From NCBI GenBank assembly GCA_963675745.2, contig CAXXWX010000019.1, forward strand, positions 32,001-96,000: a DNA stretch of 64,000 bases, given 5' to 3'. Shown here in pieces: positions 4,049 to 19,885 of the stretch. Position 1 is the stretch's first letter. Every line of letters starts with the position of its first letter. Source of the stretch: Phycisphaerae bacterium (lineage in GTDB: Bacteria > Planctomycetota > Phycisphaerae > UBA1845 > Fen-1342). The notes under the pieces are model-generated. The model did no database searches and had not been told where the DNA came from. It worked only from the letters and a program-made list of their open reading frames with translations. The translations under genes were made by a program, and so were the position numbers.

Positions 4049-6766
<2,718 letters not shown>

Positions 6767-6892
6767 GCAAGCGGTTCCCGCCGAGCTTTGCCCATGGTGC
6801 TCGTGCCCGTAGACGGCGCTACACCTGCGATCACACCTGGACCGATAGTAATAGTTGGTCTCGTTACACCCTCAACACGGGAAGGAGCCGCT

Positions 6893-7555
6893 ATGCGCGC
6901 CGTCGGGATCGTGCAAGCCCGAGGTGGCTCGAAACGACTGCCGAACAAGAACATCCGCCTGCTCGACGGTAAGCCGATGGTTTTGTACTCCTGCGAAGCC
7001 GCCACTTCGAGCGGCGTTCTGGAGGCGGTCTACGTCAACACCGATTCGCCCGAGATCGCGCTCGTCGCGCGTCGCGCGGGTGTCGAGTGTCCGGCCTTGC
7101 GACCGGCGCAGCTTGCCACCGATGATGCCAGTTCCGAAGACGCCAACCGCTGGCTGCTCGGGTTTCTGGCCGAGCGCGGTGAGCGCTTTGACGCGCTCGC
7201 GGTGCTCCAGGCGACCTCGCCGTTGCGGACAGCCCAAGACATCCGCGATGCCATGAGTGTGTTCGAGGACAACGCGCCCTGCGCTCTTAAATCCGTCTGC
7301 CCGACCAAACCGGCCCGCTGGCATGGCCTGCTTGGGCGCGGCGGCGTTTGGGAGCCGATCGCGGGCGACGAGACGCTGTTTCGGTTGAACGGCGCTATTT
7401 ACATCCACACGTACGGCGACTACATGGACGGCCGCGCGCCGCGGAAGACCGTGGCGTTTCCGATGCCGGCCGGCCGTAGCGTGGACGTCGATACGCTCGA
7501 TGACTTTCGTCACGCGGAATTCCTGATGTCGCACCAACAGGCAATCGCGGTTTAG
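6893..7555 (+). CDS. Acylneuraminate (nonulosonate) cytidylyltransferase, NeuA/LegF family
   Basis: ARGGSKRLPNKN, LQATSPLR, NGAIY, SVDVDT. AAGGAG precedes ATG 6893. Confidence 0.93.
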   Translation: MRAVGIVQARGGSKRLPNKNIRLLDGKPMVLYSCEAATSSGVLEAVYVNTDSPEIALVARRAGVECPALRPAQLATDDASSEDANRWLLGFLAERGERFDALAVLQATSPLRTAQDIRDAMSVFEDNAPCALKSVCPTKPARWHGLLGRGGVWEPIAGDETLFRLNGAIYIHTYGDYMDGRAPRKTVAFPMPAGRSVDVDTLDDFRHAEFLMSHQQAIAV

Positions 7556-7634
7556 AGGCTTGGCCTTACAGTGTCGCGGCCGACACCCGAGTCGGCCGTG
7601 GAATCGTTGCCGCCTTGATCGGATCTTCAGACAA

Positions 7635-8714
7635 ATGGATGGCATGCCGCAGCCCGACACAGACAGATTCCCCGTTGTCCACGTAAACGGCCGCGCCATC
7701 GGTGCCGGACAGACCTGCTACGTGATCGCCGAAGCCGGCGTGAACCACGACGGAGACATTGACAGCGCCCTGGCACTGGTCGACGCGGCCGTGGCGACCG
7801 GCGCCGATGCGGTCAAGTTTCAGGCTTTTGATGCCCAGACGCTTGCGGCGGCGGCGGCTCCGGCTGCGGAGTATCAGCGGCAATCCGCCGGGCGGGACCA
7901 GCGCGGCATGCTCGCGGCGCTGGAGCTGGATGACAGCGCATTTGCAGCCATTCGCGCTCGCTGTCTTGGCCGGGGCATCGAGTTTCTCGCAACGCCCTTC
8001 AGCGTGCCTGATGTGGCGCGACTGATGTCCGTGGGCGTGTGCGCGATGAAAATCGCCTCAACCGATCTGAACAATCTGCCGCTGCTGCGCGAAGTGGTCG
8101 CCACCCGGCTGCCGCTGATAGTCTCGACCGGCGCCGCCACGCGCGATGAGATTCTCACAAACGTACAGCGGCTGCAATCGCTCGGCGCGCGTGAGCGTCT
8201 GGTCGTGATGCACTGCGTGAGCAGCTATCCTACGCCGCTGGATCACGCCAACCTGCGAGCGATCGGAACTTTGCGCCGCGCATTCAACATCCCGATCGGA
8301 TTCAGCGACCACACCACCTCGCTGCAAACGGGGGGTTGGGCGGTGGCGGCCGGCGCCTGTGTAATTGAAAAGCACCTGACGCTCGACTGTGCCGCCGCCG
8401 GGCCGGATCACGCCATGTCACTCGAGCCGGCCCAATTCAGCGAATATGTGACCGGCATCCGTCTGGCGGAAACGGCCCTGGGAGACGGGGGCCTCGGCAT
8501 GAGTGAGATTGAGCGCAACGTGCGGGCCGTGGCACGCAAGAGTGTTGTCACGGCGGTCGATGTGAACGCCGGCACGCCGCTAATGGCCACCATGCTCACG
8601 ACGAAGCGTCCGGCGGGAGGCATCGAACCGGACCGCGTGGATGAGCTGCTTGGCCGGATGCTCAACCGCGATGCCGCCGCTGACACGGTGCTCACTTGGG
8701 ATATGGTCGAATGA
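7635..8714 (+). CDS. N-acetylneuraminate synthase family protein (NeuB/LegI) with C-terminal SAF domain
   Basis: IAEAGVNHDGD, DAVKFQ, KIAS, STG, HCVSSYP, GFSDHT, IEKHLTLD, GPDH, KRPAGGI. Start 7635 or 7644. Confidence 0.94.
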   Translation: MDGMPQPDTDRFPVVHVNGRAIGAGQTCYVIAEAGVNHDGDIDSALALVDAAVATGADAVKFQAFDAQTLAAAAAPAAEYQRQSAGRDQRGMLAALELDDSAFAAIRARCLGRGIEFLATPFSVPDVARLMSVGVCAMKIASTDLNNLPLLREVVATRLPLIVSTGAATRDEILTNVQRLQSLGARERLVVMHCVSSYPTPLDHANLRAIGTLRRAFNIPIGFSDHTTSLQTGGWAVAAGACVIEKHLTLDCAAAGPDHAMSLEPAQFSEYVTGIRLAETALGDGGLGMSEIERNVRAVARKSVVTAVDVNAGTPLMATMLTTKRPAGGIEPDRVDELLGRMLNRDAAADTVLTWDMVE

Positions 8715-12684: not shown

Positions 12685-12885
12685 TTCTCGGCCCGTTAGC
12701 ACCGCTATTCGCCCGAGGTGCCGCCGGCCGTAAGTACGCGGCGTCAATCGGTCGATAGTTGTGGTCAGAGTAGCGGCGCATTGACTCGCATTATCGGTAC
12801 TCGTAGCATTCGTTGTACGCCCGCAAGCGGTATGCGCGCCGCCTGCGGTTGCCCCGTCGAGCCACACCGGCCATGGAGTGCTGTG

Positions 12886-14946
12886 ATGTCCAAGGCAGAC
12901 ACAATCCTATCGATCGTCAATAACCACCTCGACACCGAGCAATTCAAGCAGCGGCACTGGGAGGGCACGTTTCGGGAATACCTCGACATGGTTGCCCAGG
13001 ACCCGCGCATTGCCCGCAATGCGTTTCAACGCATCTATGACATGATCATGCACTTCGGCACCGACAAGTACAAGCTGATGAAGCAGGATCTGGTCCACTA
13101 CAAGTTCTTCGACGACCCCTTCGAAGAGGGCGCCGATGCTATCTACGGGCTTGACACCGCCATTATGCGCCTCGTCGAGTGCTTCAAGTCCGCCGCCCAC
13201 GGCTACGGCACCGATCACCGTATCCTGCTGTTGCACGGGCCGGTCGGCTCGAGCAAAAGCACCATCGCGCGGCTGTTGAAGAAAGGCCTCGAGTACTACT
13301 CGCGGATCGATGACGGCGCTCTCTACACGTTCGCCTGGAAGGTGGCCGGCGCTGACGGCAAAGTCGATGTCCAGCCCTGCCCGATGCACGAGGACCCGCT
13401 GCGTCTGATCCCGACGGCGGCGCGCAAGGACGTACTGGCTTCGATCAACGCCGACCTGCCCACCGACAAGCAGGTCCGCATCGAAGGCGAGCTCGATCCT
13501 TTCTGCCGCAGGATGTTTCAAGACCTGCTCGTCGAGTACGGCGGCGACTGGCACAAGGTGATGGAGCATATTACCGTTCGCCGCCTGGTGCTCTCGGAAA
13601 AGGACCGCATCGGCGTCGGGACGTTCCAGCCGAAGGACGAGAAAAACCAGGACTCGACCGAGCTGACCGGCGACATCAATTACCGCAAGATCGCCCAGTA
13701 TGGCTCTGACTCAGACCCGCGCGCGTTCAACTTCGATGGTGAGCTGAACATCGCCAACCGCGGGTTGTGCGAGTTCATCGAGGTGCTCAAGCTGGATGTG
13801 GCCTTCCTGTATGACCTGCTCGGCGCGTCGCAGGAGCACACCATCAAGCCGAAGAAGTTCGCGCAGACCGATATCGACGAAGTCATCATCGGCCACACCA
13901 ACGAACCCGAATACAAGAAGCTCCAGAGCAACGAGCTCATGGAGGCGTTCCGCGATCGCACGATCAAGATCGACATCCCGTACAACACGCGTCTGGATGA
14001 CGAAATCAAGATCTACGAGAAGGACTTCGGCAAGGACAAGGTGCGCGGTATCCACATCGCGCCGCACGCCGTCGAGATTGCCGCCATGTGGGCCGTGCTG
14101 ACGCGCCTGGCCGAGCCCAAGAAAGCCGGCCTGACGCTGATGCAGAAACTCAAGCTGTATGGCGGCAAGAGCGTGCCGGGCTTTACCGAGGATTCGGTCA
14201 AGGAGCTGCGCGACGAAGCCCCGCGCGAGGGTATGGACGGCGTCAGCCCGCGCTACATCCAGGACAAGCTATCCAACGCGCTGGTCAGCGAGCAGGCCCA
14301 GCTCGACCGCGGTATCAATCCCTTTATGGTCATGAACGAGCTCGAAAGCGGCCTCGACCACCACAGCCTGATCACCGACGAGGAGCAGAAGAAGCGCTAT
14401 CGCGAATTGCTCAGCGTTGTGCGCGAGGAATACGAGGAAATCCTCAAGACCGAGGTTCAGCGGGCCATCTCCGCCGACGAGGACGCCATCACGCGGCTGT
14501 GCGCGAACTACATCGACAACGTCCGGGCCTATACGCAGCACGAAAAGGTCCGCAACAAGTACACCGGCAAGGACGAGGAGCCGGACGAGCGCCTGATGCG
14601 GGCGATCGAGGAGAAGATCGAGATCGCCGATGCGCGCAAGGACGACTTCCGCCAGGAGATCATGAACTACATCGGCGCGTTGGCCCTCGACGGCAAGAAG
14701 TTCGAGTATCACACCAACGCCCGGCTGCACCGCGCGCTGGAACTCAAGTTGTTCGAAGACTCGCGCGATACGATCAAGTTAAAGAACATCGTTTCAGGCG
14801 TGGTCGACGACGAGACCCAAGCCAAGATCGACGTCGTCAAACAACGCCTGATCAAGTTCTTCGGCTACAACGAGACCAGCGCCACGGACGTGCTGAACTA
14901 CGTCGCCAGCATCTTCGCGCGCGGTGATACGAAGCAGGGGGAGTGA
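12886..14946 (+). CDS. prkA: PrkA/YeaG family serine protein kinase (AAA+)
   Basis: [65 protein letters not shown] precedes ATG 12886. Confidence 0.95.
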
Positions 14947-14950
14947 GGGG

Positions 14951-15022
14951 GGCAGAAGGCAACGAGGCAACCAGGCAACCAGGGAACAGAAGGGAACAAC
15001 AGGCGGCTCGGCAGCCAGGCGG
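14951..15022 (+). repeat. Degenerate 8-10-mer tandem tract (GGCAACNA), left arm of inverted repeat
   Basis: GGCAGAA GGCAACGA GGCAACCA GGCAACCA GGGAACAGAA GGGAACAACA GGCGGCTC GGCAGCCA GGCGG, directly after the prkA stop. Confidence 0.9.
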
Positions 15023-15044
15023 TGGGCTGAAAGGGGGTGTGGTT

Positions 15045-15428
15045 GTGAGCGCGGAGATTCGGTCGTTTCGGGATCTTGTGGTGTGGCAGAAGGCGATGGA
15101 GTTGTGCCAGGGCGTGTACGGCATATCGCAGCGGTTTCCGCCCGATGAACGGTTCGGCCTGACCTCCCAAGTCCGACGCGCGGCTGTGTCGGTGCCATCG
15201 AACATCGCGGAGGGCTATGGCCGCAAACGCAAGCAGGATTACCTGCGTTTCCTGCATATCGCGCTCGGATCGCTCTGCGAACTTGAGACACAAGTGCTGC
15301 TGGCCATTCGCCTGGAATTCACAGACGACGATTCGGCTGTGCCGATTACGGGTCTGATCCGAGATGTTGATCGCCTGCTGAGCGCGCTGATCCGCTCTCT
15401 GAGCCGAACATACAAGGAGCCCACCTGA
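15045..15428 (+). CDS. Four-helix bundle protein (23S rRNA IVS protein / Avd-like family)
   Basis: SFRDLVVWQKAMEL, FPPDERFGLTSQVRRAAVSVPSNIAEGYGR, FLHIALGSLCELETQ. Probable GTG start at 15045. Confidence 0.95.
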   Translation: MSAEIRSFRDLVVWQKAMELCQGVYGISQRFPPDERFGLTSQVRRAAVSVPSNIAEGYGRKRKQDYLRFLHIALGSLCELETQVLLAIRLEFTDDDSAVPITGLIRDVDRLLSALIRSLSRTYKEPT

Positions 15429-15507: not shown

Positions 15508-15570
15508 TTCTGTTGCCTTGTTGCCTTGTTGCCTTGTTGCCTTCTGTTGCCTTCTGTCGCCTGAGCCGCC
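15508..15570 (-). repeat. Tandem (TTGTTGCC)n tract, right arm of inverted repeat
   Basis: TTCTGTTGCC TTGTTGCC TTGTTGCC TTGTTGCC TTCTGTTGCC TTCTGTCGCC TGAGCCGCC; reverse complement of the 14951-15022 tract. Confidence 0.9.
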
Positions 15571-15571
15571 C

Positions 15572-16669
15572 ATGATCGCCAAAATCGAAAAAGACCACCA
15601 ACGCTTTCGCCAGATCATAAAAGGCAAGATCCGGAAGGACTTGCGCAAGTTCCTTACGCGCGGCGAGCTCATCGGCAAGGAGGGCAAACATCTCGTCAGC
15701 ATCCCTTTGCCCGGTATTGATCTGCCGCACTTCCGCTACGGCGACAACAAAAACACCGGCGTCGGGCAGGGTGATGGCAAGGCCGGCGAAAAAGTCGATG
15801 GCGAGGGCGAAGGCGGCCTCGGCGGCGACGAGCCAGGAAAGCACATTCTCGAAGTCGATGTCAGCCTCGACGAACTCGCCGACATCCTCGGCGAAGAGCT
15901 CCAGCTCCCGCGCATCGAACCCAAGGGCCGGCACAACATCACCACCACGCGCGAACGCTACTCCAGCATTCGCCAGACCGGACCCGAGTCGCTGCGCCAC
16001 TTCAAACGCACCTTTCGCCGGGCACTGCGACGCATGATCATGACCGGCGCCTACGACCCCGACGACCCCGTCATCGTCTTCGAGCGCGGCGACAAGCAGT
16101 ACCGCAGTTGGAAGACGACCAAAAAGCCACAGTCCAACGCCGTCATCGTCTACATGATGGATGTATCCGGCTCGATGGGGCACGAGCAGAAGGAGCTGGT
16201 GCGGCTCGAAGCGTTCTGGATCGATGCCTGGCTGCGGCGCAATTATGAAGGCATCGAAAGCCGTTATATCGTCCACGACGTGAACGCCGCCGAGGTTGAT
16301 CGCGAGACGTTCTTCCGCATCCGCGAGGATGGCGGCACCAAGATCAGCAGCGCGTTCAAACACGCCCGCGCACTGCTCGACGAGCACTACGCCCCGGACG
16401 AGTGGAATGTCTACCTGTTCCACTTTTCCGACGGCGACAATTCGTCCGAAGCCGACTCGCGCGAGTGTTGCGCGATTCTCAAGGACCACCTGCTGCCGTT
16501 CAGCAACCAGTTCGGCTATTGCCAGGTGGCCAGTGCCTACGGCAGCGGCGCCTTCATCAACGTTCTCCGCGAGCACCTCGCCGACGCCGAAAACATGGTC
16601 ACGACGCGCGTGAACACCAAAGACGATATTCTGGACAGCATCAAGGCGTTTTTTGCGAAGGGGAGGTAG
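15572..16669 (+). CDS. DUF444 family (YeaH/YhbH) vWA-like protein
   Basis: DHQRFRQII, VSIPLPGIDLPHFRYG, EELQLPRIEPK, MMDVSGSM, GGTKISSA, WNVYLFHFSDGDN. Usual partner of prkA. Confidence 0.94.
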   Translation: MIAKIEKDHQRFRQIIKGKIRKDLRKFLTRGELIGKEGKHLVSIPLPGIDLPHFRYGDNKNTGVGQGDGKAGEKVDGEGEGGLGGDEPGKHILEVDVSLDELADILGEELQLPRIEPKGRHNITTTRERYSSIRQTGPESLRHFKRTFRRALRRMIMTGAYDPDDPVIVFERGDKQYRSWKTTKKPQSNAVIVYMMDVSGSMGHEQKELVRLEAFWIDAWLRRNYEGIESRYIVHDVNAAEVDRETFFRIREDGGTKISSAFKHARALLDEHYAPDEWNVYLFHFSDGDNSSEADSRECCAILKDHLLPFSNQFGYCQVASAYGSGAFINVLREHLADAENMVTTRVNTKDDILDSIKAFFAKGR

Positions 16670-16810
16670 ACAGCGACAGGAGCCAACGCCCGCTTGACGT
16701 CCAGCTAGGCGGAATGGCGTTCCCTCGTGACGCCGATGAGTTCCAGGAGGTGGCTTGTGAACCGGACGGATGATACGATCGTATAGGTGTGAGAGGAGGC
16801 GCCGATCCAG

Positions 16811-17599
16811 ATGAACGCACAGGCGGCACTAACGATCGATCCGACGCAGAAGTTCCCGCACCTGGACCGGGCGCCGATTGTCGAGGCGGTGATCCACTGG
16901 CGCGCCAGAAGCGAAAAAGCACATCCGCGCGACGAACTGCTGAGGCAACTAAAAGAGAGGCTACCGGGCTACCCCGCAGCGCGATCCCAGCAGGAGATAC
17001 AGTTCGAGACACAGATTGGCCCTGAGGGGGCCGCTCAAGCGCAACGCGCGCGATGGGATGGCTTCCGCTTCGAATCAACGGACCGGCGGCATATCGCGCA
17101 GTTCACGCACAACGGGTTTGTCTTCAGCCGGGTCACGCCTTACGAGGACTGGGACCGCTTCGCCGCTGAGGCCAAGCGGTTGTGGCAAATCCACGTCGAG
17201 TTGGCCCAGCCGTCAGAGATTGAACGACTGGGCGTGCGTTTCATCAATCGCATCGTTCCGATTGACTTGGCCAAGCTGGACGAGATACTCACGCTGCCGC
17301 CGCAATCGCCGAACGGGCTGTCGTTGCCGATCGGGGAATTCCTGCATCGCAATCTGTTCGATGTGCCTGGGCACGCGTATCGCGTTCATGTGATCCAGAC
17401 GAGCCAGCCGCCCGCGCCGCCAGAGACGGACGCGCTCAGCCTCATCCTGGACCTCGACGTGTTCACGACGAAGACCATTGAGTTGGATGATGCGACGTTG
17501 GACGCCCGTTTGTGCGAAATGCGCTGGTTGAAGAACATGGCTTTCTATTCGCTCCTCACCGAGCAGACAATCGAACGATTCAAGGAGGCCAGGCCATGA
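16811..17599 (+). CDS. TIGR04255-like protein
   Basis: 262 aa with APIVEAVIHWR, PYEDWDRF, RLGVRFINRI and LDLDVF, a pattern recognised from this sporadically distributed family. Confidence 0.82.
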   Translation: MNAQAALTIDPTQKFPHLDRAPIVEAVIHWRARSEKAHPRDELLRQLKERLPGYPAARSQQEIQFETQIGPEGAAQAQRARWDGFRFESTDRRHIAQFTHNGFVFSRVTPYEDWDRFAAEAKRLWQIHVELAQPSEIERLGVRFINRIVPIDLAKLDEILTLPPQSPNGLSLPIGEFLHRNLFDVPGHAYRVHVIQTSQPPAPPETDALSLILDLDVFTTKTIELDDATLDARLCEMRWLKNMAFYSLLTEQTIERFKEARP

Positions 17600-18054
17600 G
17601 GGAGGCAGTCATCATTCGCGGCGTCAGCGGTGTGGCCCAATACATCGAAGACGCAACGCGCCGTGACCGCCGCTACCTCCACAAGTCCTCGGCGTTCGGT
17701 ATTCAGAGTGTGCTGCGCGACGAACTTGCTGAGGCTTGGGAAGAGTGCCATCAACCCAATTGGGACGGCTATGATGCATTGCCCGTCTCACGGGATGCGC
17801 TGCGGAACATGTACACGTTCTTGGAGGCAATGCCGCTCGGATTCCCTCGTCCGACGATCGGGGCCGATCCGCATGGTCACCTCTCGGTCGAGTGGTATCG
17901 AAGCCCGCGACGCGTGCTGTCCGTGAGCGTCAGTGACGACGACCTGTTGCACTATGCCGCACTACTTGGCTCCAACAGCACGTGTGGAACTGAGACGTAC
18001 TTCGGCGAGGTTCCCGAGAGCATTCTCAACCTGGTGCGGCGGGTCTACTCATGA
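17596..18054 (+). CDS. Hypothetical protein with NWDGY motif
   Basis: ATG 17596 overlaps the upstream stop (ATGA) and has an AAGGAGG RBS. Motifs PNWDGYDALPVS and PTIGADPHGHLSVEW. Confidence 0.8.
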   Translation: MREAVIIRGVSGVAQYIEDATRRDRRYLHKSSAFGIQSVLRDELAEAWEECHQPNWDGYDALPVSRDALRNMYTFLEAMPLGFPRPTIGADPHGHLSVEWYRSPRRVLSVSVSDDDLLHYAALLGSNSTCGTETYFGEVPESILNLVRRVYS

Positions 18055-18482
18055 TCGACTCGCGTAGCGTGCCGGACGTTGAGTCGGACGAGGTACTCGC
18101 CCGGTTCATTCTCTTTAGCAGACACATCCGTAGCAGCGACGACACGATTAGACCCGACGCATTCGTCCCGCATCCCCATGACGAACTCTCTGTGACGCGC
18201 CATCGCGATGCGACGGAGGACGAAGTTTGGGGCGCGGGCAGGGCAGTTGCAGAAATACAGCAACGGACACTGCATGGGCGCGGCGATGTCATCGCTGACA
18301 CCTTCATGAGGCAGGGCCTGGCGACTCAGGCAGCGCCTGTCTTGGGGCATGCCGCCCTGCCGGACAACCCGAACCACGCCAACGTGATCGGCTGGCCAAA
18401 GGACGACAAGGGGCGGCAGAGGTTACTCGCGCTAAGAGTCGCGCAAGAAGCCAATCTGGTTCGACATTCCATTCTGTCGTAA
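18051..18482 (+). CDS. Hypothetical protein, possibly ADP-ribosyltransferase-like fold
   Basis: ATGA overlap with the upstream gene. 143 aa with EVLAR, AF, LSVTR and NPNHANVIGW. The fold call is an inference. Confidence 0.65.
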   Translation: MIDSRSVPDVESDEVLARFILFSRHIRSSDDTIRPDAFVPHPHDELSVTRHRDATEDEVWGAGRAVAEIQQRTLHGRGDVIADTFMRQGLATQAAPVLGHAALPDNPNHANVIGWPKDDKGRQRLLALRVAQEANLVRHSILS

Positions 18483-18751
18483 CGTACCAATGCCGAGGTG
18501 GGCTGAGCACGAAGTGGTTGACGCTCCAACCCTGGTGGGTGCCCCACACCGTGCGTGGCAGGCGTGCACGATTGGCCGGCGCCACCAGTTGCCCCACCGG
18601 CGCCTTGCTGGCCGCCGAACTTGAAGCACCCCAAACGCGACGGCTTGGCCGGTATTCTCCGTGGACAATCTCACCTGCCCATGCCAGAATAAACCGCAGT
18701 GTGGCAGCCGCGCGGGGTGGGTCTGCCAACGCGGGGTTCGGAGGATTACTC

Positions 18752-19885
18752 ATGTCAGAGGGGACGGCGGAGCGCATTGTCATCCAGTGCGAGGCGTGTT
18801 CAGCGCGCTACAAAGTGCCGGCGGCCACGATCGGGAAACGCACCAGGTGCAAGAAGTGCGGCACGGCCTTCACAATCGATCCACCCGACCAACCCAAGCC
18901 GGGCTTGGAGCAATCGGCGGCGCCCGAGCAGACGCCCGACGAGCCACCGATCAGCTTTGAGTGTGAGGTTTGCGGCGCAACCCTGAAAGCCCGCGCCGCG
19001 GCGATTGGGAAACGCGTCAGGTGCAAGTCCTGCGGCGGTATTCAGACCGTACCCGAGCCGCCCGAGCCCGGCGGCGTCGGTGACGACGACGTCTGGGGCG
19101 CCCTCGCCGAGGGACAGGCCGTTCAACTCGCACCCGCCGACGACAGCACAACCGGCCGGCCGTGCCCATCCTGCGGCGGAAGCATGCCCGGTGGGGGCAC
19201 GCTTTGCACCGCGTGCGGATACAACATCCAGACCGGCATCGCCGCAGCGCCGTCGGTGACACGCGACCCAACGACGGCGCAGCGATCCAGCGAGGGTTTC
19301 CTTAACAAGCTCGGCGTACGTGTGATCCTAGGTTGTGGCCTGAGCATTATCGCCGCCGGACTCGGCACGATCCTCTGGATCGTGGTGCTGGCGTTGACGG
19401 GCTACGAGAGCGGCTTTGTGGCCTGGGGCATCGGCGGGCTGGCCGGCCTGGGTATGGCGCTCGGCTTCCGTGGCGTACATCCATTGGCCGGCATCGGCGC
19501 CGCGCTGTTCGCCACCGGCGGCATCCTCATCGCCAAGATGATCATGGTGCTGGTGATTCTTGCTCCATCGCTGATGTACGCTGTCGATGAAACGCTGCCC
19601 CCGCGCCAGGCGCTGACCGAGCACCTGGCGAATCGGGCATTCTGGGATGACCCCGAGGATCGGCCCCCGGAAGCACACCAGGCCGAGGCCATGGCTCGCG
19701 TTGCTGAAATGACCGACGAGGAGGTCCTCGAGGAATTGGACGTGGCGCGCGATTACGCCAGCTCCCAAACAGGCGGTGCTACAATCGGCGATGTGTTCGG
19801 GCTCATCGATCTGCTGTTCTTTGGGCTGGCGATCATAACCGCGTACCGACTCGGAGCGCGCGGATTCTCATCGGCACCATCCTGA
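18752..19885 (+). CDS. Membrane protein with three N-terminal zinc ribbons
   Basis: CEAC/CKKC, CEVC/CKSC, CPSC/CTAC, then several hydrophobic helices. GGAGG precedes ATG 18752. Confidence 0.85.
   Translation: MSEGTAERIVIQCEACSARYKVPAATIGKRTRCKKCGTAFTIDPPDQPKPGLEQSAAPEQTPDEPPISFECEVCGATLKARAAAIGKRVRCKSCGGIQTVPEPPEPGGVGDDDVWGALAEGQAVQLAPADDSTTGRPCPSCGGSMPGGGTLCTACGYNIQTGIAAAPSVTRDPTTAQRSSEGFLNKLGVRVILGCGLSIIAAGLGTILWIVVLALTGYESGFVAWGIGGLAGLGMALGFRGVHPLAGIGAALFATGGILIAKMIMVLVILAPSLMYAVDETLPPRQALTEHLANRAFWDDPEDRPPEAHQAEAMARVAEMTDEEVLEELDVARDYASSQTGGATIGDVFGLIDLLFFGLAIITAYRLGARGFSSAPS

Follow-up and report, generated by a model that had tools for sequence, protein, structure and literature searches.

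A three-gene cassette was followed up in a stretch of 64,000 nucleotides from a Phycisphaerae bacterium (contig CAXXWX010000019.1, positions 32,001 to 96,000 of the forward strand), which is called the window here and to which coordinates given without a locus label refer. The cassette, at 16811-18482, encodes a TIGR04255 protein (gene 1), a small protein with a conserved WDGY domain (gene 2) and a small protein with a predicted ADP-ribosyltransferase (ART) fold (gene 3). It is a real and widespread operon that had previously gone undescribed, and profile comparisons indicate that it shares its predicted toxin/antitoxin core with PDC-M32, a phage defence candidate. The reading we prefer, and which we regard as evenly balanced, is that genes 2 and 3 are a toxin-antitoxin (TA) pair gated by the TIGR04255 protein, working in the manner of the toxin-antitoxin-chaperone (TAC) systems without being a member of the TAC/CmdTAC family.

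A conserved operon

The features of the cassette, all on the + strand, are these, with the support for each in brackets:

16794-16799, +, AGGAGG ribosome-binding motif before gene 1 (sequence)
16811-17599, +, gene 1, TIGR04255 protein, 262 aa, proposed controller or sensor (open reading frame (ORF), NCBIfam match, model)
17596-17599, +, ATGA stop/start overlap of genes 1 and 2 (sequence)
17596-18054, +, gene 2, WDGY protein, 152 aa, proposed antitoxin (ORF, alignment, position upstream of gene 3)
18051-18054, +, ATGA stop/start overlap of genes 2 and 3 (sequence)
18051-18482, +, gene 3, ART-fold protein, 143 aa, proposed NAD-dependent toxin (ORF, model, conservation)

An earlier note on this DNA had described three genes of these lengths joined by two ATGA overlaps and had called the first TIGR04255-like. 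The sequence confirmed the layout, and the assignment holds, with an NCBIfam E value of 1.2e-34 (120.3 bits against a cut-off of 30, residues 18-258). An AGGAGG-type ribosome-binding motif also precedes gene 2. Positions 16171-19158 are covered by overlapping contigs that were assembled from the probable source sample and show 0-1 differences, so the gene joins are not an accident of assembly; these contigs are not independent of the assembly itself. At E<=1e-3 the searches returned 722 homologues of gene 1, 146 of gene 2 and 714 of gene 3, and the closest labelled homologues of all three proteins were from Planctomycetota.

The earlier note had made co-occurrence of the three genes elsewhere a test of its proposal, and they do co-occur. 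A scan across genomes turned up 171 relatives of gene 3, of which the best 80 loci were analysed; these span Planctomycetota, cyanobacteria, Betaproteobacteria, Acidobacteriota, Desulfuromonadales, Verrucomicrobiales and other groups. In 77 of the 80, gene 2 comes immediately before gene 3, and the three exceptions are at contig edges. Genes 1 and 2 are both present, in conserved order, in 72 of the 74 loci with at least 700 bp upstream, and in each of these 72 the accessory gene (gene 1) leads the operon. When 301 genomes of the same phylum were sampled without bias, gene 3 occurred in 12 of them with 14 matches, of which 11 had TIGR04255 upstream and 13 had gene 2. Pairwise identities of the three genes correlate with one another (Spearman 0.52-0.61 over 64 loci, among which kin are not independent), and dN was lower than dS for all three genes in all close pairs with a computable dS (33 pairs listed, one with dS undefined).

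The 72 loci include three damaged copies (L021, L068 and L078). In L068:6155-9472 gene 3 is split by an insertion, in L078:1707-2379 a deletion runs through genes 1 and 2 and gene 3 is shortened, and in L021:2447-2859 gene 2 is frameshifted. Elsewhere gene 3 is frameshifted in L130:2712-3097, and gene 2 is truncated upstream in L209:1217-1893. Some of these five may be assembly errors.

Two cassettes can also share a genome. A second, distant one in the same genome as the window (G000:C15:405129-406865, locus L082:1501-3237) begins with a TIGR04255-like gene that scores below the cut-off and matches the broad profile at E 7e-22; its middle gene encodes 199 aa, and its third a 145-aa protein that shows the R-S-H pattern described below. 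An acidobacterial contig (L039) carries two different cassettes of TIGR04255, gene 2 and an R-S-H protein 4 kb apart, at 6552-8292 and 12690-14515.

The predicted fold and triad of gene 3

Scans of the three proteins against Pfam, PHROGs and PADLOC gave no match, and NCBIfam gave TIGR04255 alone. The PADLOC check proposed by the earlier note thus came back empty for the window's proteins. PDB sequence searches with five alignment profiles and one further alignment found nothing better than E 0.17, and ESM Atlas returned only unnamed clusters (scores 0.94-0.96), along with a lead to DUF6098 for gene 3 (0.92).

Structure prediction was more informative. AlphaFold2 modelled gene 3 from 119 sequences with a predicted local distance difference test (pLDDT) score of 95.6, and an exhaustive VIA fold search with the model put the NAD-binding domain of KptA/Tpt1 at the top (Z 7.8, root-mean-square deviation (rmsd) 3.4, 93 aligned residues), followed by AvrPphF-ORF2 (Z 7.0) and Tse2 (Z 6.2). 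Further matches were DarT, scabin, Tne2, TreX, CC0527 and RES toxins, and ART-superfamily proteins fill almost all of the 50 VIA rows listed. Gene 3 is predicted to have an ART-superfamily fold because the whole list agrees; single Z values are moderate. The ART-like fold suggested by the earlier note is therefore borne out at the level of a model and its fold matches.

The residues that the earlier note had singled out, in EVLAR (R18), LSVTR (S47) and NPNHANV (H109), are all there, each on a predicted strand (15-20, 45-50 and 109-113 respectively). Among 115 relatives with 32-51% identity, R18 and H109 are the only invariant positions and S47 is conserved in at least 90%; among 25 far more divergent relatives S47 is invariant, and R18, P96 and H109 are each conserved in at least 90%. 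A profile of the family drew in 2,588 cluster representatives at E<=1e-3. The earlier note had likened gene 3 to the R-S clade of ARTs. This stands for the Arg in strand 1 and the Ser in strand 2 and fails for the catalytic Glu of strand 5: broad alignments contain no conserved Glu after S47 and have the invariant His109 on a late strand instead. Since R-S-E ARTs have Glu at the third catalytic position (10.1101/2020.07.21.169896) and the triad of the CmdT toxin is H-Y-[EDQ] (PMC11618068), gene 3, with R-S-H, belongs to neither group.

Genes 2 and 3 as a swappable module

Genes 2 and 3 are, on profile evidence, a swappable module and distant homologues of PDC-M32. An hhalign comparison of gene 3 with PDC-M32B-type proteins gave a probability of 96.4% (E 1.3e-9 over 111 columns) with R, S and H in register, iterative profiles gave E 1e-11 to 1e-23, and one gene 3 relative matched the PADLOC M32B model itself. 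Distant gene 2 relatives matched PADLOC PDC-M32A at positions ~262-368, its C-terminal third, and this domain of ~110 residues joins the gene 2 family after profile iteration (E 1e-6 to 1e-15). The gene 2-like M32A domain lies nearly always directly upstream of an M32B-like gene, the same order as in the cassette. PDC-M32 differs in having two genes, the ~375-aa M32A carrying an N-terminal domain fused to the gene 2-like domain; the window's proteins do not match the PDC-M32 models, and no full-length M32A is present. The ~250-aa N-terminal domain of M32A is unrelated to TIGR04255 (E 0.45), and for this reason M32A was rejected as a fusion of genes 1 and 2.

PDC-M32 is a PADLOC phage defence candidate proposed from guilt by embedding, and itself remains a candidate; Payne et al. 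argue that embedding predicts defence (10.1101/2024.01.29.577857). One paper uses it as a PADLOC label (PMC12429752).

Four loci, L025, L080, L214 and L219, have the pair of genes 2 and 3 but lack gene 1. There gene 2 has a different N-terminus, and by eye a short helical leader is common to three of the four. Other partners were seen as well. In L175:1477-2790 (- strand) a fusion protein carries a gene 2-like domain behind TPR/PPR-like repeats and is followed by an M32B-type ART, making a third kind of partner. In L182:425-2373 a pair resembling genes 2 and 3 follows a 242-aa protein that falls outside TIGR04255 (E 0.03 to the broad profile), possibly a more remote head-gene family.

TIGR04255 as the head gene of many effector pairs

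TIGR04255 was present in 51 of 301 sampled genomes of the window's own phylum, in 32 of 401 from the phylum to which a Thiobacillus record belongs and in 20 of 201 from that of a cyanobacterial record, and in none of 14 controls. The 86 loci examined further are the best-scoring ones returned and not all matches (L162 was dropped as a duplicate). A small, usually overlapping gene and then an effector follow TIGR04255 in 78 of them; seven have no clear partner and one is masked. The commonest spacing of genes 1 and 2 is the -4 overlap, found in 26 of 71 TIGR04255 loci.

The effectors span at least eight families. The gene 3 family accounts for 12 of the 86, including three genomes used as starting points, and other effectors with the R-S-H pattern for 15 (11 aligned and four clustered with them). 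There are four PIN proteins, two PemK and one DUF7689, together with two HEPN-like proteins and one HicA-like protein (weak Pfam match, E 0.006). An unassigned 'HLAWH' family appears in five loci (L113, L114, L115, L117 and L166), four of which share a middle-gene family. Nineteen middle genes form a helix-turn-helix (HTH) cluster with weak Xre-like matches, and HTH middle genes paired with toxin-family effectors are, as far as these matches go, the pattern of type II TA pairs.

The commonest effector is a 'QGD...TQxCD' family, in 36 of the 86 loci (35 by clustering and one by eye), which has conserved Q-G-D, T-Q-x-C-D and a late Arg and had no match in Pfam, NCBIfam, PADLOC or PDB. It is a candidate new toxin family; examples are L085:1-786, L100:2513-3040 and L128:544-1137. 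By eye it resembled MazF/PemK, a candidate identity that sequence and profile comparisons did not support.

PADLOC matched none of 26 TIGR04255 proteins. Eight TIGR04255 proteins are among the predicted novel defence genes of DefensePredictor (PMC13092281). Literature searches with TIGR04255 and InterPro names found no mention in main text, most subscription papers lying outside their coverage, and searches for a matching system found none, nor did one NAR 2026 supplement (PMC13069673).

Ser/Thr-rich tails of the middle genes

In the alignment, the conserved WDGY domain of gene 2 starts at about residue 40 and includes the C-terminal end; the variable part of gene 2, with the consensus GxSxxA, is an N-terminal tail. 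Tails were compared in 71 of the 86 TIGR04255 loci, 13 having been set aside in advance because the middle gene was missing, mis-called or a duplicate, and two more by script filters. Ser and Thr make up 19.8% of the first 45 residues of middle-gene proteins, 11.6% of those of the effectors and 13.6% of the rest of the middle protein, and the middle-gene tail is richer than the effector in 52 of the 71 loci, a count that treats related loci as independent. A loose G/T/S-x-S-x motif, picked after viewing the sequences, occurs in 33 tails against 20.9 in shuffles. A complex prediction of the trio scored 0.84, with gene 1 replaced 0.87 and with gene 2 replaced 0.00, and was not used for or against binding.

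A proposed mechanism and its relation to known systems

In the proposed mechanism, gene 3 would be an NAD-using ART-fold toxin and gene 2 a protein antitoxin. Gene 3 probably uses NAD+ and is toxic; the target may be nucleic acid or a nucleotide, a weak suggestion made because its fold neighbours are of the KptA/DarT/Tse2 type. Gene 2 is likely to bind gene 3 and neutralise it. Gene 1 would restrain the pair, and by analogy with TAC the N-terminal tail would make a type II TA pair dependent on it. Gene 1 may just as well as not bind the Ser/Thr-rich tail of gene 2 and so stabilise or gate it, a mirror image of TAC chaperone addiction. A phage protein or infection signal would then engage gene 1 and free the toxin, and we lean towards phage infection as the trigger and abortive infection as the outcome.

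The earlier note had taken CmdTAC as the nearest relative, and this did not hold up. What the cassette shares with TAC and CmdTAC is a tricistronic layout, a TA-like pair with an accessory, an effector of the ART fold, an accessory family that recurs with many families of toxin, and an antitoxin with a low-complexity tail. The toxin triads differ, R-S-H here against the CmdT triad given above. In TAC the chaperone is SecB-like and encoded by the third gene, and here the accessory comes first and has no detectable SecB similarity; the chaperone-addiction sequence (ChAD) of TAC is C-terminal and aromatic, and the tail here is N-terminal and Ser/Thr-rich. In TAC a phage protein competes successfully with the ChAD of the antitoxin for binding to the chaperone (PMC11618068; 10.1101/2024.02.24.581848). 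The likeness to TAC is one of function alone, since the gene order, the place and chemistry of the tail and the fold of the accessory all differ.

Other systems offer partial parallels. Tse2, KptA/Tpt1 and AvrPphF-ORF2 are the nearest folds to gene 3, at 10-18% identity and with no sequence-level match, and the cassette has no secretion context. Tse2 presumably also has an Arg-Ser-His triad. It is a type VI secretion toxin of P. aeruginosa, NAD-dependent and ADP-ribosyltransferase-like, with an immunity protein (PMC6099711; PMC10281587). The validated system DS-42 (PRO1) of DefensePredictor has a similar size pattern of 238 aa, 190 aa and an effector, which is a metallo-beta-lactamase (MBL) hydrolase and not an ART-fold protein, and its first gene is annotated as hypothetical (PMC13092281). 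HEC-07, also validated, fuses an AdoMetDC-like N-terminal domain (PDB 3C6K) to a RelE toxin in a single protein (10.1101/2024.01.29.577857). The gene 1 model aligns to 3c6k/AdoMetDC too, a lead at fold level alone; the sequences gave no link, as the PADLOC scan of the 26 TIGR04255 proteins shows.

The fold of gene 1 and what it may do

The model of gene 1 (pLDDT 90.9) contains two beta-alpha-beta(n)-alpha repeats, a predicted two-repeat saddle-shaped beta-sheet like that of the guanido-kinase catalytic domain or TBP. The best VIA matches were McsB and arginine and taurocyamine kinases (Z 8.1-8.6, 172-185 aligned residues, rmsd 4.4-4.7, identity 8-11%), followed by TBP (Z 7.0, 156 aligned, rmsd 4.9), with RepDE, AdoMetDC (Z 6.0-6.5) and 3c6k (Z 4.8) further down. 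The best Foldseek row, at E 7e-4, was a chain of an RNA Pol III complex, and the next rows were mostly TBP. No internal repeat was detectable by hhalign.

These matches raise an alternative in which the TA pair is kept and gene 1 is either an enzyme that modifies the tail, kinase- or ligase-like, or a DNA- or RNA-binding regulator acting through its saddle. McsB is a protein kinase, the middle-gene tails are Ser/Thr-rich, and E25, R139, R143, N/D146, D214 and D216, on the predicted central strands, are conserved in 56-99% of 84 diverse TIGR04255 members, their alternation suggesting one charged face. The match to the kinases is nevertheless distant (identity 5-11%, rmsd 4.0-5.3). Guanido kinases have several ATP-binding arginines and a NEED motif. 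In the TIGR04255 set these have no evident conserved counterpart: Y111 and F245 alone come close to invariance, none of the polar positions is invariant, R139 and R143 are conserved in 64% and 75%, and a NEED-like motif was not found. At position 238, where 57% of members have His, this gene 1 has Arg. We consider the alternative unlikely, though the best placed of those weighed here.

Gene 1 is not detectably SecB-like in sequence. It has no match to Pfam SecB, and 84 TIGR04255 sequences, whole or in halves, gave hhalign E values of 0.26-0.52 against 30 SecB sequences; SecB is also absent from the listed fold matches, which does not exclude SecB likeness.

Genomic context and probable recent acquisition

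The earlier note had proposed to look for defence-island enrichment, and the cassette is enriched beside and inside restriction-modification (RM) operons. Of the 80 loci, 15 have RM genes within 3 kb, where random positions in this genome would give 0.3; the count takes its seeds from the same loci, uses one background genome and holds about 10 independent cases. Six of the 80 cassettes sit between type I hsd genes, inside RM operons, and a further three loci adjoin SIR2-HerA, DUF499 or a large helicase. The neighbours in general, scanned as 239 deduplicated nearest ORFs of 721 called, vary and are for the most part housekeeping genes with no relation to the cassette. One locus, L014:35-10484, is a defence island with a cassette, having a DNA methylase, a SIR2-like gene and HerA upstream and a RelE-UvrD helicase fusion downstream.

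This context bears on a second alternative, that the cassette is a selfish or stress-related TA-like module for addiction or dormancy with no anti-phage role, its RM neighbours reflecting shared insertion hot spots. Its spread is patchy, as the 12 of 301 genomes with gene 3 show, and most loci have no RM neighbour, several adjoining housekeeping genes or other TA genes (ParE, YoeB, DUF433). Embedding in type I RM operons argues for defence, and the homologous PDC-M32 loci L168-L170 and L172 are embedded in the same way. Addiction modules are typically plasmid-borne, and no copies were found in the plasmid records searched. This alternative is improbable, a little more so than the previous one.

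At the window's locus the cassette lies behind prkA, a 23S-rRNA-IVP four-helix gene and yhbH/DUF444, and the next gene downstream of it encodes a Zn-ribbon protein. The 141-bp gap between yhbH and gene 1 holds the AGGAGG motif of gene 1, and the cassette region has no convincing promoter or terminator. Behind yhbH the cassette was found in none of 15 relatives with room for it (16 were examined, one ending at a contig edge), and its GC content at third codon positions is 0.69-0.76 against 0.81-0.87 for prkA and yhbH. Because of this absence and the lower value, the locus points to recent acquisition of the cassette at this site. No flanking repeats were found around it, and no RNA holder was listed in the search.

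The slot behind yhbH is variable among relatives. A same-family relative has a Cas9 gene directly behind yhbH (L192:1-1188, - strand; Pfam Cas9_a E 5e-10), and only the more distant relatives L198, L199, L201 and L202 have genes there that look SpoVR-like by eye. The 23S-rRNA-IVP gene, at 14943-15428, is inserted between prkA and yhbH, a place from which it is absent in most relatives; short repeats flank it at ~14950-14990 and 15510-15545 (blastn self-match), and many loose read ends fall near 15511-15545.

Weighing the TA reading

Several observations weigh against a TIGR04255-gated toxin pair with an anti-phage role. For gene 3, the Foldseek check proposed by the earlier note found nothing at E<=1e-3, the best Z of 7.8 is a level that, according to the tool, a common arrangement can reach, and the protein at the head of the fold list, KptA/Tpt1, repairs RNA and is no toxin. 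The direct comparison of gene 2 with the M32A profile is weak (E 0.03). Related loci are counted as independent in the Ser/Thr statistic, and when tail profiles were compared with gene-1 linkage, distant gene-1-linked tails also scored near zero. The 'QGD' family of 36 loci has no library match and is a toxin family by candidacy only. As for defence, the RM count has the limits given with it, 65 of the 80 loci, this one included, have no RM neighbour and lie mostly between housekeeping genes, and searches of viral contigs and of phage and plasmid records, at single-sequence or pattern sensitivity, gave no relative of gene 3.

The rank of KptA/Tpt1, which is also high in the Foldseek list, is the ground for a third alternative, in which the operon is metabolic and gene 3 encodes a non-toxic enzyme of the KptA/Tpt1 kind that repairs or modifies its target. 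KptA aligns over its NAD-binding half alone (chain residues 86-180) and gene 3 has no RNA-binding lobe, and the slot of gene 3 is taken in other TIGR04255 loci by PIN, PemK, HEPN and HicA-like proteins, so this is very unlikely. Least probable of all is a rearranged TAC with gene 1 as a SecB-like chaperone that has duplicated internally and diverged far: one accessory family does serve many toxin families, as a TAC chaperone does, and the C-terminal half of gene 1, with four strands and then a long helix, loosely resembles the SecB topology, yet the sequence and profile comparisons with SecB above showed no similarity, and the gene order and the end that bears the tail are opposite to those of TAC.

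Significance

A TA pair gated by TIGR04255 thus remains the preferred reading. If it is true, it would give a function to TIGR04255, an orphan family carried by 8-17% of the genomes sampled in three phyla, and a mechanism to the uncharacterised candidate PDC-M32, and it would mean a second, non-SecB route to accessory-gated TA immunity. Gene 3 belongs to a branch of small R-S-H proteins with the predicted ART fold that is missed by current Pfam, PHROGs and NCBIfam models and, at this locus, by PADLOC. TIGR04255 could serve as bait in the search for new toxin families, 'QGD...TQxCD' being an example. More tentatively, TIGR04255 may mark a large class of so far undescribed immune modules of three genes with an origin independent of the SecB-based TAC, in which a universal phage sensor or gate of the TBP/guanido-kinase fold grips or modifies a Ser/Thr-rich N-terminal tag on many unrelated antitoxins, and of which this locus would be the R-S-H ART version.

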